Below, in pieces: positions 42,397 to 53,534 of a stretch of 64,000 nt of DNA (the first letter of the stretch is position 1; every line of letters starts with the position of its first letter). The notes under the pieces were generated by a model. It was not told the DNA's origin. It did not search any database and worked only from the letters and a program-made list of their open reading frames with translations. The position numbers were made by a program, and so were the translations under genes. The DNA is from Desulfuromonadales bacterium (GTDB lineage Bacteria; Desulfobacterota; Desulfuromonadia; Desulfuromonadales; JACZKF01): the NCBI GenBank assembly GCA_029289095.1, contig JARFUG010000007.1, positions 9,297 through 73,296 on the forward strand. The letters are read 5' to 3'.

Positions 42397-42855
42397 TCAG
42401 GTGCGCTCCAGCGCTTCCTTTCTCGGCAGGGTCTTTTGCGCATAGGACCAGATATTGAGCTGCTCCAGGGCGTAGAGCGCCAGACCTGCGAAAAAGACCC
42501 CCATGAAATGCCCCTCCAGGGCTCCTGCAAAGAGATAGAAGGGGTAGAAGACGGTTCGGAAGAAAAGGTGCAGCCAGTTCGATGACGGTTTCTGAGCGCC
42601 CGCGATGCGCCCCAGGATCAGTACGGCGGCAGAAAAGGTATAGGCGCCCACCGCGACGCTCGTCATGGCGACCGGGGGAGCCGCCCCCAGGATCATCCGG
42701 GCGCTTTCCCCCAAGGGGGCGAGCAGATCGGCCCCGCGGGAGAAGAAAAATATGGTGCTGACCAGCAGGAAAAGAGAGAGATCGCAAAGGCCCCGCCTGC
42801 ACAGGGCGTGGAGATCGGCGCCGGTCCTGTCGGTTGGATTCCTCTGGCGTTTCAT
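42397..42855 (-). CDS. Hypothetical 4-TM membrane protein; last gene of the cytochrome c/b operon
   Basis: 152 aa and hydrophobic. The gap to the cytochrome b gene is only 9 nt. Confidence 0.55.
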   Translation of the reverse strand: MKRQRNPTDRTGADLHALCRRGLCDLSLFLLVSTIFFFSRGADLLAPLGESARMILGAAPPVAMTSVAVGAYTFSAAVLILGRIAGAQKPSSNWLHLFFRTVFYPFYLFAGALEGHFMGVFFAGLALYALEQLNIWSYAQKTLPRKEALERT

Positions 42856-42864
42856 GATGTCCTC

Positions 42865-43542
42865 CTAGCCGTGATGTCCGCTCTCGAGAGTCGTTTCGCT
42901 TTCGTGCTCGTCGATCTCTTCCCATCCGTTCCACATCGGCTTGAAATAGGCCAGCGGCGTCTTGCCCAGGGTCGCCAGGTAGAGGTGCGTGAAGAGGAAG
43001 GCGAACATGGCGCACGAGAGCAGGAAGTGGATGCCGACGAGGATCTTCAGCCCGCCGATGAGCAGGACGATTTCCCGCAAGGGGGCGATGTTCATCAGCA
43101 GAATTCCGCTCAGGCTCACCAGGGGCATGAGGACGAACATGATGGCCAGGTAAGCCGACTTCTGCAGCGGGTTGAACTTGTTGTCCGGGGTGGGATGATG
43201 CGGGCTCGGCTTGCCCCGGAAGTAGTTGAAGAAGTAGTAGACGCTCTGTCGCAGCAGGCCGTGGCGCAGGTCGTCGCTGCTGGGCACGTAGAGCTGCGTC
43301 ATCTTGCGTGCGATGCAGGTGTAGTAGAAGAACCAGAAGGTGAACGAGAGCGCCACGAGAATCCCCGCCGTGTTGTGCAGCTCGATCGCCGCCTTGTAGC
43401 TGCCGAAGAGGTTGATGTATTCCGGGAACCGGATCTGCGCTCCCGACAGACCGAGAGTGACGATGCCCAGGGCGTTGAGCCAGTGCCAGATGCGCACCGG
43501 GGTCGGCTGCAGATAGACGCGTTTGCTGCTGTGAGTGGTCAT
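42865..43542 (-). CDS. Di-heme b-type cytochrome membrane subunit (PhsC / cytochrome b561-like; CbcB-like)
   Basis: 225 aa with 4-5 TM helices and conserved His residues (RIWHWLNA, ELHNTAG, GIHFLLS, FTHLY). Confidence 0.8.
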   Translation of the reverse strand: MTTHSSKRVYLQPTPVRIWHWLNALGIVTLGLSGAQIRFPEYINLFGSYKAAIELHNTAGILVALSFTFWFFYYTCIARKMTQLYVPSSDDLRHGLLRQSVYYFFNYFRGKPSPHHPTPDNKFNPLQKSAYLAIMFVLMPLVSLSGILLMNIAPLREIVLLIGGLKILVGIHFLLSCAMFAFLFTHLYLATLGKTPLAYFKPMWNGWEEIDEHESETTLESGHHG

Positions 43543-43554
43543 GGCTTCGGCTCC

Positions 43555-44607
43555 TTATCGTCGGTTCTTGCGGGTCAGAAATCGCAGCGTTCCGTGCCCC
43601 ACCGGCATGATCAGTCCGGCGGCCAGGATCGCCAGCCCGATATAGTTGAGGGTGGCGCTGCGGGTCGCTCCCACGATGTAGAAGTCGGGGGTCCCGTACA
43701 GGACATCGAGAACCGCCCCCTTCTCCACCGCAAGGCGTTCAAAGGAGCCGTCCTGGCGCGGGAAGGCGACGAAGCTCGTCTGCATCGCTCCGGGGCCGGA
43801 GGCGTGACAGAAGGTGCAGTCCCATCGGTTGGCGAGGATGCCGAAGTCGTGGGTGACGATCTCCGGAGTGAGCATCCCCTTGAGTCGCAGGTTGCGATTG
43901 TCCCTGTTGCGGTTGAAGCTCCGGAGCTCGGCCAGGGAGATGAAACCGTCGCCGTCGGTGTCGATCAGAGAAGAGATCTTCTCCTGCTCGCTCAAGAGTT
44001 TGAGATCTTCATATCCGGCGAGTTCAAAGGGGAGTCCCCGCGCCGGCGCTCCCGAGTCCGGGTGGAGCGGGCGTCGGGTGAGATACAGGGAGATGACGAT
44101 ATTCTCCGAGCCCGAATGGCAGGAGATGCACGGCAGCATCTCCAGGTGAAGAGCCGCCTGCGGCAGCCAGCTCCCATGGGAACGTACAAGGCCGGAGGTC
44201 TCGTGGCAGACGGCGCAGTTGCGGTTCATGTCGTGCCCGGAGATCGTCGTCGGCCCGCGCACGAGGTGGGGGTTGTGGCAGTCGCCGCAGTCGGCATATT
44301 GGGCGTGTCCGCTCTGGGCGTATTCTTCGTAGATGTCCTGATGGCAATCGAGGCAGCCGGCCCTGGACAGAGGCTGGCCGTCGTCGGGATGATCCCAGGT
44401 GACCGATTCGTGGCAGGCCACGCACCCCAGCCCCGCATGCGCGGTGGTGTCATAGCGCAAAGGATCGATCACGTAGGCGTCTCCCACCATCCCCGCATCG
44501 GCGTGACAGCTCACGCAGCTCTCGTCGTCCATCGCCGCCGTTTCAACCGGGGCGGCCAACCAGAGTGCCGCCAGCCCCAGAGAGAGAAATCCGATTTTGC
44601 GTCCCAT
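43555..44607 (-). CDS. Heptaheme c-type cytochrome with an internal EF-hand and a C-terminal TM anchor (CbcA-like)
   Basis: Signal peptide. Seven CXXCH motifs: CVSCH, CVACH, CLDCH, CGDCH, CAVCH, CISCH, CTFCH. DTDGDGFISLAE lies between hemes 6 and 7. C-terminal helix LNYIGLAILAAGLIMPV. Confidence 0.88.
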   Translation of the reverse strand: MGRKIGFLSLGLAALWLAAPVETAAMDDESCVSCHADAGMVGDAYVIDPLRYDTTAHAGLGCVACHESVTWDHPDDGQPLSRAGCLDCHQDIYEEYAQSGHAQYADCGDCHNPHLVRGPTTISGHDMNRNCAVCHETSGLVRSHGSWLPQAALHLEMLPCISCHSGSENIVISLYLTRRPLHPDSGAPARGLPFELAGYEDLKLLSEQEKISSLIDTDGDGFISLAELRSFNRNRDNRNLRLKGMLTPEIVTHDFGILANRWDCTFCHASGPGAMQTSFVAFPRQDGSFERLAVEKGAVLDVLYGTPDFYIVGATRSATLNYIGLAILAAGLIMPVGHGTLRFLTRKNRR

Positions 44608-45225: not shown

Positions 45226-45627
45226 TTAATGGATGCTCAGCACGTTTAGGACATTTCTGAAAGCGCATTCGACAGCGGTGCGGATTTCCTCGCCGTCGCG
45301 GGCGTTCACCGGTTTGAGGGAGTGATAGAAAATCCCTTCGCGGCGGATCTTCTGCATGATCGGAAGAGGTTTTTCATCGGAAACAAGGATGATGGTCAAA
45401 GACCGATCACACCTCTTCATCAAGGGGATAAGGTCCTCGGCGCCGACCTTCTCGTCGAAATCGCTCCCGACCAGCACGACATGGGGCTTGTTCTTCAGGA
45501 GGTCTCCCAGGACATCCACGGCCGAATCGGTGGTCCTCACCTCGTATCCTGCCCGGGAGAGAACATTTGCAATGAGCCTGCGGGTGGCGGTATCCCGGTC
45601 GGCCAGGAGAACGCTTTTCTCTTTCAT
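45226..45627 (-). CDS. Stand-alone receiver-fold protein lacking the phospho-acceptor Asp (pseudo-receiver), copy 1
   Basis: 133 aa. A gapless alignment to the canonical REC at 46095-47504 places Gly (VVLVGSD) where Asp (VIFLDVR) sits. The Ser/Thr (IILVS) and Lys (LKP) positions are retained. Confidence 0.75.
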   Translation of the reverse strand: MKEKSVLLADRDTATRRLIANVLSRAGYEVRTTDSAVDVLGDLLKNKPHVVLVGSDFDEKVGAEDLIPLMKRCDRSLTIILVSDEKPLPIMQKIRREGIFYHSLKPVNARDGEEIRTAVECAFRNVLNVLSIH

Positions 45628-45938: not shown

Positions 45939-45954
45939 GCAACGCCCGTACCCA
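45939..45954 (-). promoter_or_regulatory. Candidate sigma-54 promoter of the small-protein / pseudo-receiver / cytochrome c-b operon
   Basis: The minus strand reads GGGTAC-GGGCG-TTGCT. The invariant GG and GC are present with exact N10 spacing, and the TTGC -12 box is present. It lies 45 nt upstream of ATG 45894. Confidence 0.55.
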
Positions 45955-46094: not shown

Positions 46095-47504
46095 TCAGCC
46101 CGATCTCTCGATTCGGTGCTTTTTCAGCAACGCATAGAGGCGGGATTGGGAAAGGCCGGACAGACGACAGGCTTCGGGAATGTTCTCTTCAGCCAGCGCC
46201 ATCAATTCCTGCAGGTAATGCTTTTCAGCCTGGGTATAGACGTTGTCGCGATAATCCTGAAGCTTCGGGAGTCTCCTCAGGGGTTGTTCGGAAGCGGCTT
46301 CATCCGGAAGTGCATTCCGGCGCACCGAGTGGCGCATGATCTCGGCGCGGAAGGACGGAGGGAGGTGTTTGGGGTAGAGAGTCGGTTCGAAACGTGCTGC
46401 GGAAAAGGCGCGCACCAGGGTGTTCGCCAGTTCGCGCACATTGCCGGGCCAGTGATAGGTGAGCAGGGCGTCGAGGAATTCGGGGGAGAATCCTTTGGAC
46501 GCCACGCCGTCCCCCTCACAGAGCCGGTCGATATGGATCCTCGTCAGTTCCCGGATGTCCTCGGCGCGCTCGCGCAAGGGGGGGAGCTCGATGGTGAAGG
46601 AGCGGAGGCGAAAAAGCAGATCGCTGCGAAACAGATTCCTGGCCACCATATCGTCCAGGTCGCGGTTGGTCGCGGCCACCAGCCGGAAGTCGCTCTCGAC
46701 CTCGCGGGTGCTCCCCAGCGGACGGAAGCGCCTCTCCTGCAGAACCCGCAGGAACGTCTTCTGAACCGATAGAGGGAGTTCGCCGACTTCATCGAGAAAG
46801 AGGGTGCCGCCGTGCGCCTGCCGAACGAGACCTTCCTGCGGTTTTTCCGCGCCGGTGAACGACCCCTTCTCGTGGCCGAAGAGGAGGCTTTCGGCCAGTG
46901 TTTCGGGCAGGGCCGCGCAGTCGACGATGACGAAATTCTTTTCCGCCCGCGGGCTGTTGCGGTGAATCGCCTGGGCGAAGAGCTCTTTGCCCGTCCCCGT
47001 CTCACCGGTGATCAGAATGCTGGCATCGCTGGCCGCCGCCTGGGCGAGCAGATTCAGGCAGGCCTTGAGCTTGGGGCTGTTGCCGCAGATGTCCTCGCGC
47101 TTGAGCGCAACGATGTTCTGCCTTGGGTCGGACTTCTTCTCGCGGCGGTACTGCAGGGCGCGCTCCAGCGAAAGGGTGATCTCCTTGCTCGAGGAACCCT
47201 TCTCGATGTAGTCCCAGGCGCCCGATTTCATCGCCAACTCCGCCCCGTCCGGCTCGCCGAAGCCGGTGATGATGATCACCTCGGGGTTCGAGGCTGCCTG
47301 GGCGAGGCGCGGCAGCGCCTGCAGGCCGTTGCCGTCTGGCATGCGCACATCGAGAAAGATCACGTCGAAATCCTCCGAGGCGCTCTTCTCGAGCCCCTCG
47401 GTCAGGCACGACGCACTGGCCACCTCGTGCCCCAGGCGCGAAGCCATGAGGGAGAGCGACGAGACCATCAGATCATCGTCATCGATGATCAGCACCTTAG
47501 CCAT
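46095..47504 (-). CDS. Sigma-54-dependent response regulator (REC-AAA+-Fis HTH), activator 1
   Basis: REC domain (LIIDDDD...VIFLDVRMPDG), GETGTGKE, GSFTGA, and C-terminal HTH (IPEACRLSGLSQSRLYALLKK). Confidence 0.9.
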   Translation of the reverse strand: MAKVLIIDDDDLMVSSLSLMASRLGHEVASASCLTEGLEKSASEDFDVIFLDVRMPDGNGLQALPRLAQAASNPEVIIITGFGEPDGAELAMKSGAWDYIEKGSSSKEITLSLERALQYRREKKSDPRQNIVALKREDICGNSPKLKACLNLLAQAAASDASILITGETGTGKELFAQAIHRNSPRAEKNFVIVDCAALPETLAESLLFGHEKGSFTGAEKPQEGLVRQAHGGTLFLDEVGELPLSVQKTFLRVLQERRFRPLGSTREVESDFRLVAATNRDLDDMVARNLFRSDLLFRLRSFTIELPPLRERAEDIRELTRIHIDRLCEGDGVASKGFSPEFLDALLTYHWPGNVRELANTLVRAFSAARFEPTLYPKHLPPSFRAEIMRHSVRRNALPDEAASEQPLRRLPKLQDYRDNVYTQAEKHYLQELMALAEENIPEACRLSGLSQSRLYALLKKHRIERSG

Positions 47505-52818: not shown

Positions 52819-52998
52819 ATGGATGCCATCATGTCGCGGTTTTTAAACTCGGTCGGTGAATACAAGAGCGTCTACACCCTGGTCGACTTCTACCAGTACA
52901 TCAAGGGGGTGGAATACCTCCTGATCGTCGCTTTCTTCATCGTCTTTGTGAAGTATTTCAAATATATCGACGCGCCGCAGCAGAAGAAGGAGCACTGA
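52819..52998 (+). CDS. Small single-TM membrane protein (59 aa)
   Basis: SD AAGGGAGG lies upstream of ATG 52819. Hydrophobic helix YLLIVAFFIVFV. It occupies the same operon position as the ORF at 44639-44878. Confidence 0.45.
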   Translation: MDAIMSRFLNSVGEYKSVYTLVDFYQYIKGVEYLLIVAFFIVFVKYFKYIDAPQQKKEH

Positions 52999-53045
52999 GG
53001 CCGCGGCGCTTCAGACGTTTACTCACAAGCGGAGGAGAGATCGCA

Positions 53046-53534
53046 ATGCATACAAAACGCAAATGGTTGGTTGGCGCAATCGTTCTGGCCGCCCTCTGGA
53101 GCGCCCCTCTCGAGGAAGGTGCAGCGCAGGATTTTCCCGAATTCATCGAACTGGATTCCCTGAGTGATCTCTACGGTCCGGTCCCCTTCGATCATCTGAT
53201 GCACCTCGATTTCGGGAGCTGCGCCGATTGCCACCATCACGGCACGGGCGTTCCGGTGCAGGATGCAAACTGCGCCCGCTGTCACAGCAACGCAGAGACG
53301 GTGCCGATCATCAGTTGCAAAGAGTGCCACGCACGCGATCCCTTCTCAGCCACGGATATCCGGGAGAAAGAGGCAGATCTCCACCTCTATCATCGCGACA
53401 AGCCGGGGCTGAAGGGGGCCTATCACCTGAGCTGTCTCGGATGCCACGAAGAAATGGGCGCCCCGACCGGGTGCAACGACTGTCACGTCAGGACCAAGGC
53501 GGGCGAGGCCTTCTTCCGGGGCGGCCCCCGGTGA
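53046..53534 (+). CDS. Periplasmic c3-type (class III) multiheme cytochrome, five CXXCH motifs
   Basis: Signal peptide, then CADCH, CARCH, CKECH, CLGCH and CNDCH within 162 aa. Confidence 0.85.
   Translation: MHTKRKWLVGAIVLAALWSAPLEEGAAQDFPEFIELDSLSDLYGPVPFDHLMHLDFGSCADCHHHGTGVPVQDANCARCHSNAETVPIISCKECHARDPFSATDIREKEADLHLYHRDKPGLKGAYHLSCLGCHEEMGAPTGCNDCHVRTKAGEAFFRGGPR

Follow-up and report, generated by a model that had tools for sequence, protein, structure and literature searches.

The DNA analysed here (the window) is a 64 kb stretch of contig JARFUG010000007.1 from a Desulfuromonadales bacterium, and on its minus strand it encodes a 350-residue c-type cytochrome which, by homology, is an orthologue of CbcA, the periplasmic heptahaem subunit of CbcBA-type menaquinol:periplasmic-cytochrome oxidoreductases. 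Between the sixth and seventh haem motifs the protein carries a single, canonical EF-hand loop, and sequence comparisons indicate that this loop probably forms a structural Ca2+ site which is occupied constitutively. The features concerned are listed below in the direction of translation, with structural elements taken from AlphaFold2 (AF2) models and their predicted local distance difference test (pLDDT) scores.

43555..44607, minus strand: cbcA orthologue, 350-aa heptahaem c-type cytochrome (open reading frame, motif scan)
44116..44130, minus strand: haem-binding motif 6, CISCH, aa 160-164 (motif scan)
43819..44115, minus strand: haem-free beta/alpha subdomain, aa 165-263, with two long strands (170-178, 240-248) and three short helices (AF2 models)
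43963..44013, minus strand: segment before the loop, YEDLKLLSEQEKISSLI, aa 199-215, with helix 199-205, a break and a one-turn entering helix 211-214 (AF2 full-length and subdomain models)
43927..43962, minus strand: 12-residue EF-hand loop, DTDGDGFISLAE, aa 216-227 (PS00018 match, followed by L)
43909..43935, minus strand: exiting helix LAELRSFNR, aa 225-233 (AF2, pLDDT above 89)
43849..43851, minus strand: codon of His253, 26 residues past E227 (alignment)
43804..43818, minus strand: haem-binding motif 7, CTFCH, aa 264-268 (motif scan)

The translation contains seven CxxCH motifs, starting at C31, C62, C85, C107, C131, C160 (CISCH) and C264 (CTFCH), together with a signal-like N-terminus and a hydrophobic C-terminus, in which the AF2 model places helices at 318-330 and 335-347 that we read as a transmembrane anchor. 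The seven haem motifs and the hydrophobic C-terminal helices (318-347) fit published descriptions of CbcA, and CbcA of Geobacter sulfurreducens PCA (AAR33925.1) aligns with the window cytochrome at 54% identity over 326 aa (E 1e-129), the nearest relatives with names being proteins of metagenome-assembled genomes (MAGs) at ~60% identity. The best match among solved structures is PDB 28pb_A ('Cytochrome c', 278 residues, E 3.7e-99). Residues 3-278 of this entry, rebuilt from the alignment, are 100% identical to residues 29-304 of AAR33925.1, and 28pb therefore represents the soluble domain of G. sulfurreducens CbcA. The periplasmic, membrane-anchored cytochrome partnered with a cytochrome b that had been described from the sequence alone is thus borne out by the 28pb match, by the identity to CbcA and by a neighbouring PF01292 gene. 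An experimental CbcA structure has been reported and is credited to Antunes et al. 2026 (review PMC13591261); the Figure 1 legend of that review gives the structure as 'PDB 2BPB', the sequence search leads to entry 28pb, and the printed code looks like a misprint of 28PB. CbcBA is needed for respiration by G. sulfurreducens below -0.21 V (Joshi et al., bioRxiv 10.1101/2021.04.15.440034).

Residues 216-228 of the cytochrome, DTDGDGFISLAEL, satisfy every position of PROSITE PS00018, in keeping with the preliminary description, in which a manual check had matched the loop D216-E227 with its following L228 to the classical pattern DxDxDGxIxxxE, and they are the sole match to this pattern in the six-frame translation of the window. 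Chance expectation for this protein, given its own composition, is 0.0016 matches, and a match occurred in 272 of 200,000 shuffles of the cytochrome. The coordinates and residue numbers first assigned to the loop (43927-43962, residues 216-227) are exact in the translation, and the haem-free gap between motifs 6 and 7, put at roughly 100 residues, is 99 residues long. Mapped onto the EF-hand positions, D216 would supply ligand X, D218 ligand Y, D220 ligand Z, the carbonyl of F222 ligand -Y, S224 ligand -X and E227, as a bidentate residue, ligand -Z, with G221 and I223 in the structural positions 6 and 8.

Comparison with homologues shows that the loop is not peculiar to this genome. All 120 of the closest homologues are heptahaem proteins which keep the loop, 106 of them pass PS00018, and the other 14 fail just at non-ligand positions (Ser at 6, Ala at 8, Ile at 4). 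An alignment of 113 homologues, 53-81% identical to the window cytochrome, gave the following occupancy of the loop positions; for the variable positions in the last line, homologues from the Geobacter side were considered as well.

Position 1: Asp, invariant
Position 3: Asp or Asn only
Position 5: Asp in 98, Asn in 10, Thr in 4, Ser in 1
Position 6: Gly, Asn, Asp, Ser, His or Gln
Position 8: Ile in 86, Val in 25, Ala in 2
Position 9: Ser or Thr only
Position 12: Glu, invariant
Position 13: Leu, invariant
Positions 2, 4, 7 and 11: wide variation, basic residues included

Mean entropy in this alignment is 0.40 bits at the ligand positions, against 1.75 bits at the non-ligand positions of the loop and 1.28 bits over the whole periplasmic domain. 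Homologues gathered with G. sulfurreducens CbcA give the same picture: the loop is kept in 131 of these 132 Geobacter-side proteins, position 12 being Glu in 127 and Asp in four, and the remaining sequence is a 236-aa truncated fragment. G. sulfurreducens CbcA itself (28pb) has the same loop in the same place (DTNNDNYISLAEL, D213-L225), and at 32 of 32 Desulfuromonadia-type genomic loci a loop-bearing CbcA is followed downstream by a homologous cytochrome b. That homologues conserve the motif shows it to be maintained by selection and not to have arisen by coincidence; the loop and its Asp ligands, whose conservation had been left as a question by the preliminary description, are retained in essentially all CbcA orthologues examined, with the ligand positions the most constrained. 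On this comparative evidence the EF-hand loop is the rule in Desulfuromonadia CbcA, G. sulfurreducens included.

A profile of aa 190-262, built from 41 diverse homologues and searched against all PDB sequences, matched after CbcA itself EF-hand proteins only, namely EhCaBP2 (2e-11), EhCaBP1 (1e-8), calmodulins (~1e-6) and polcalcins, and profile positions 14-41 align in register with residues 8-35 of calmodulin (helix A and loop 1). The Pfam model EF-hand_5 is matched at E below 0.01 by 34 of the 113 aligned homologues, and precomputed Pfam annotation already gives EF-hand_5 for eight of 120 Geobacter-side homologues among the matches listed.

The full-length AF2 model, built on the 113-sequence alignment, has a mean pLDDT of 78, rising to 89-96 over residues 201-240, and orders the elements as strand 170-178, helix 199-205, one-turn helix 211-214, loop, helix 225-233 and strand 240-248; a separate model of aa 165-262 has the same strands and helices. 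L228 and F231 of the exiting helix are invariant among the 113 homologues, and L202, L214 and N232 are nearly so. The haem-free stretch had been described as an insertion, a description which did not hold: even distant, loop-less relatives keep the whole stretch, which is a conserved subdomain and carries an invariant histidine, His253. Nor is it an inserted EF-hand-pair domain, as a Foldseek search of the PDB retrieved no EF-hand protein for it and it contains one loop only.

His253 is a histidine outside any CxxCH motif and is invariant in 113 of 113 homologues. The periplasmic part of the protein holds exactly seven such invariant free histidines (57, 73, 101, 114, 144, 154 and 253) for its seven haems, from which we infer that His253 is the distal axial (sixth) ligand of haem 6 or haem 7. 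As a haem ligand, His253 would link the loop subdomain directly to the coordination of a haem. One further histidine, H338, is the eighth to be invariant; it lies at the end of the anchor on the cytoplasmic side, or past it, in a C-terminal tail PxGHGTLRFLTRKNR (aa 330-350, window 43558-43620, minus strand) which follows the membrane helix and is almost invariant among the 113 homologues, its near-invariant residues being P335, G337, H338, G339, R342, T345, R346, N348 and R349. H338 or the tail could contact CbcB or one of the CbcB b-haems.

A profile search of 1.84 billion representative proteins returned 669 relatives at E ≤ 1e-10. Among the best 150 of these 669, 84 domain instances span the region, 46 with a ligand-competent loop and 38 without. 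Loop-bearing relatives include more distant 7-haem proteins as well as 13-, 17- and 21-haem proteins, and some 13-haem relatives hold two copies of the module in one chain with a loop in each. The CbcA-like module occurs once or twice in P0138, P0139 and P0185 (13 haems), P0144 (17 haems) and P0158 and P0160 (21 haems), and several of these larger multihaem cytochromes have an EF-hand-type loop in each copy, which suggests that the unit of haem chain plus EF-hand loop is a duplicable building block.

Nine-haem relatives from Beta- and Alphaproteobacteria (loci L034-L050) show the converse arrangement. They are 22-31% identical to the window cytochrome over essentially its full length, and directly downstream each has a cytochrome b 34-39% identical to the window CbcB; examples are found in Ramlibacter lithotrophicus (L040, 4001-4945) and in a Rhodoferax ferrireducens MAG (L042, 2216-3478). 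The strand-helix-strand scaffold, the exiting helix (LWSLLKEFN), the equivalent of His253 (AHQL) and the last CxxCH are all kept, but the ligand loop is deleted or degenerate, with GLDERALWSLLKEFN where CbcA has DTDGDGFISLAELRSFN. The nine-haem cytochrome and its cytochrome b appear to represent a lineage of CbcBA-like quinol oxidoreductases which is uncharacterised and lies outside the Desulfuromonadia.

The reading we favour is that of a constitutively occupied, structural Ca2+ site, which we consider probable. The loop, aa 216-227, would bind one Ca2+ in pentagonal-bipyramidal geometry through the side chains of D216, D218 and D220, the carbonyl of F222, S224 (directly or via water) and a bidentate E227. 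The ion, acting as a structural cofactor, would hold both helices, the short entering one and the exiting one (L228, F231, N232), against the two long strands, and the helices so clamped would fix the segment leading to His253 and also set the geometry of haems 6 and 7 at the membrane-proximal end of the haem chain, by CbcB. That a metal is bound in the loop is argued by the ligand-specific nature of the conservation, and Glu at position 12 with Gly or Asn at position 6 is a Ca2+-type signature. Periplasmic Ca2+ follows the medium and is usually far above the dissociation constants of EF-hands, so permanent occupancy is likely and the site would be filled all the time. EF-hand-like sites in extracellular and periplasmic proteins, for example those of Slt35 and the dockerins, are typically structural. 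Since the loop-less relatives keep the scaffold, His253 and haem 7, an accessory, stabilising role is favoured over a catalytic one.

Several observations weigh against this reading. The Pfam EF-hand models tested alongside PS00018 (PF13202, PF00036, PF13405) match residues 213-231, yet all fall under their gathering cut-offs (EF-hand_5, 22.4 vs. 25.9 bits; EF-hand_1, 19.8 vs. 25.4; EF-hand_6, 18.6 vs. 25), although scores of this kind are usual for a single EF-hand. In the helix-loop-helix initially thought plausible, the loop is confidently modelled and leads into the exiting helix 225-233, but the entering helix, which comes after helix 199-205, amounts to one turn and is far shorter than canonical. 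Foldseek comparison of the subdomain model (aa 165-262) with the PDB (entries up to 2026-04-08, 28pb not included) gave no significant match and no EF-hand protein (best E 0.52); the full-length model gave only a weak match to MtrA. PS00018 finds no second EF-hand loop in the cytochrome, and lone EF-hands often bind Ca2+ weakly unless paired. The nine-haem relatives keep the scaffold in the absence of the loop, by which comparison the scaffold has a greater age or a wider distribution than the Ca2+ site, and some lineages can form the fold without the putative site. Finally, the review which summarises the CbcA structure paper (PMC13591261) makes no mention of calcium.

The alternatives differ in what they make of the same loop. 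Were it a regulatory switch, occupancy by Ca2+, or by another divalent cation plentiful where CbcBA operates (Fe2+ or Mn2+ late in metal reduction, for example), would shift the conformation of the subdomain; through this shift the ligation or potential of haem 6/7, or else the contact made with CbcB, would change, and electron flow near the thermodynamic limit would be gated. The loop does share its subdomain with the invariant His253 and adjoins the membrane-proximal haem 7, and a few orthologues have Asp at position 12, a substitution which moves the selectivity of EF-hands to smaller cations. However, nearly all members have Glu there, which is also the residue of constitutive Ca2+ sites, the periplasm does not normally run short of Ca2+, and none of the evidence points to conditional occupancy. 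Expression lends the switch some appeal, as strong induction of cbcBA comes at a late stage of growth on Fe(III) citrate, once ~70% of the Fe(III) has been reduced (Joshi et al.), when the periplasm would presumably be rich in Fe(II), yet BccR, a sigma-54 activator, already accounts for the regulation of cbcBA at the level of transcription (Joshi et al., bioRxiv 10.1101/2021.04.15.440034). We regard a switch as unlikely.

It is also rather improbable that the loop is a conserved acidic element without metal, which merely resembles an EF-hand and serves as a turn in the structure or offers basic partners an electrostatic patch. The Pfam scores under threshold, the proneness of the PS00018 pattern to false positives and the failure of Foldseek to recognise the modelled subdomain as an EF-hand fold speak for such an element. 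Conservation of the loop, however, follows the ligands and not the charge: positions 3 and 5 exchange Asp with Asn and position 9 exchanges Ser with Thr, Gly, Asn or Asp is found at position 6 and Ile or Val at position 8, Glu is kept at position 12, and positions 2, 4, 7 and 11 drift even to basic residues, whilst the profile matches genuine EF-hands in register. Little credence can similarly be given to the more speculative proposal that in the periplasm the unpaired EF-hand serves to sense metal or to mediate pairing, which would make CbcBA, as the quinol oxidase of lowest potential in metal-reducing bacteria, dependent on, or tunable by, Ca2+ or the Fe2+/Mn2+ that builds up in metal reduction, with the signal passing through the His253 subdomain and with the loop-less relatives unregulated.

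Least likely among these is a Ca2+-dependent pairing surface, through which the lone EF-hand would pair with that of another CbcA, or dock CbcB, CbcC or the PpcA family, and so drive oligomerisation or complex formation. EF-hands are nearly always paired and CbcA has one, isolated EF-hand peptides pair, and the 28pb entry has two chains of the same sequence, but two chains in a crystal entry do not prove a biological dimer. The full-length AF2 model assigns a beta-bridge to loop positions 7-8, the element that pairs EF-hands; as this bridge arises in a model of the monomer its partner is intramolecular, and it is absent from the subdomain model. The two-copy 13-haem relatives show a possible route to pairing, but the 7-haem proteins have no second copy. 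A chance motif is ruled out by the conservation among homologues, and a dockerin or Excalibur module by the absence of any Pfam match to either even at E up to 10 and by a single loop in place of duplicated 22-residue segments.

The neighbouring genes which bear on the identity of the cbcA locus are:

42865..43542, minus strand: cbcB orthologue, 225-aa membrane b-type cytochrome, starting 13 bp downstream of cbcA (Pfam PF01292 Ni_hydr_CYTB, E 7e-28)
45226..45627, minus strand: stand-alone response-receiver protein, 133 aa, upstream in the cbcA gene string (Pfam Response_reg and NCBIfam receiver-domain matches)
46095..47504, minus strand: sigma-54-dependent response regulator, 469 aa (receiver, Sigma54_activat and AAA_lid domains)

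Upstream of cbcA and on the same strand are genes for a 78-aa protein, the 133-aa receiver, an 80-aa and a 79-aa protein and the sigma-54 response regulator, which is likely to be the counterpart of BccR. In the cbcBA operon of G. sulfurreducens, small hypothetical proteins, a receiver protein and the sigma-54 activator BccR are found alongside (Joshi et al., bioRxiv 10.1101/2021.04.15.440034), and the gene order of the window matches this architecture with the exception of the orientation of the activator, which is divergent in G. sulfurreducens (Joshi et al.) but on the same strand as cbcA here. A second difference lies downstream of cbcB, where G. sulfurreducens has cbcC/D/E: at the window locus no dodecahaem CbcC-like gene was seen adjacent to cbcB, and the position is taken by a 152-aa, multi-pass membrane protein (42397-42855, minus strand) which has no Pfam match. 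One other multihaem open reading frame is present in the window, at 52860-53531 on the plus strand, ~8 kb from cbcA, encoding ~224 aa with five CxxCH motifs. The G+C content of the window is 60.5%.

A sequence with two mismatches to the sigma-54 -24/-12 consensus, GGGTACgggcgTTGC (45939-45953, minus strand), lies ~40 nt upstream of the first small open reading frame of the string, a placement which agrees with the report of a sigma-54 promoter for this operon in Geobacter. A scan of the whole window for the consensus gave fewer matches than expected by chance, so that GGGTACgggcgTTGC is not significant by itself, and as a sigma-54 promoter element upstream of the cbcA string it is only suggestive.

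CbcBA is an inner-membrane quinol oxidase which enables Geobacter-type respiration at the thermodynamic limit and whose working is poorly understood. A conserved, ligand-complete EF-hand by its membrane-proximal haems predicts a required metal cofactor, and such a cofactor would bear on heterologous expression, on purification (avoidance of ethylenediaminetetraacetic acid), on redox measurement and on the interpretation of structures; D216A and E227Q are simple point mutants with which the subdomain could be probed. The window gene adds one more, unexceptional member to the CbcA family and the loop is a family trait, found in the crystallised G. sulfurreducens protein also. The putative calcium site of CbcA may already be described with the 28pb structure, which makes its novelty uncertain: a literature search which did not reach the structure paper of Antunes et al. 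2026 found neither CbcA nor Geobacter nor multihaem cytochromes linked with EF-hands or calcium. The structure deposited for G. sulfurreducens may already show the feature, and the value of the present result would then be mainly that of a pointer and not of a new kind of system. Neither the link to His253 nor the contrast between loop-bearing and loop-less forms of one scaffold was seen stated in the searchable literature.

Amongst known systems the closest is G. sulfurreducens CbcA (GSU0594), the subunit of the CbcBA/Cbc5 quinol oxidoreductase, which has the same order of seven CxxCH motifs, the C-terminal anchor and CbcB next downstream, with a receiver gene and a sigma-54 activator upstream as in the window; the loop is of the type DxDxDG in the window CbcA and DxNxDN in the G. 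sulfurreducens protein. With calmodulin, the polcalcins (Bet v 4, Phl p 7) and Entamoeba CaBP1/2, CbcA has in common all ligand positions, Gly6, Ile8, Glu12 and, as predicted by AF2, helices on either side of the loop. However, calmodulin-type proteins are cytosolic and have paired EF-hands in an all-helical domain, whereas CbcA is periplasmic and has one unpaired loop, with a modelled entering helix of one turn, in a beta/alpha subdomain of a multihaem cytochrome.

Exported bacterial proteins with EF-hand-like sites, in which Ca2+ is thought to stabilise the fold, include the lytic transglycosylase Slt35 of Escherichia coli, dockerin modules and Pseudomonas aeruginosa EfhP. Like CbcA, these are exported and their EF-hand loop is single or has atypical flanks, but none are redox proteins, and the dockerins differ from CbcA in having duplicated segments and no entering helix. 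Conversely, Ca2+ is found near the haems of NrfA nitrite reductase, of bacterial dihaem cytochrome c peroxidases (for example Geobacter MacA) and of MtrC-type outer-membrane cytochromes, where it affects structure or activation; to our knowledge these sites are not helix-loop-helix EF-hands. The nine-haem proteobacterial CbcA-like cytochromes differ from the window CbcA in two extra haems and in the absence of the Ca2+-ligand loop, and the two clades, 7-haem proteins with the loop in the Desulfuromonadia and 9-haem proteins with the same scaffold without it in the proteobacteria, therefore offer a natural experiment.

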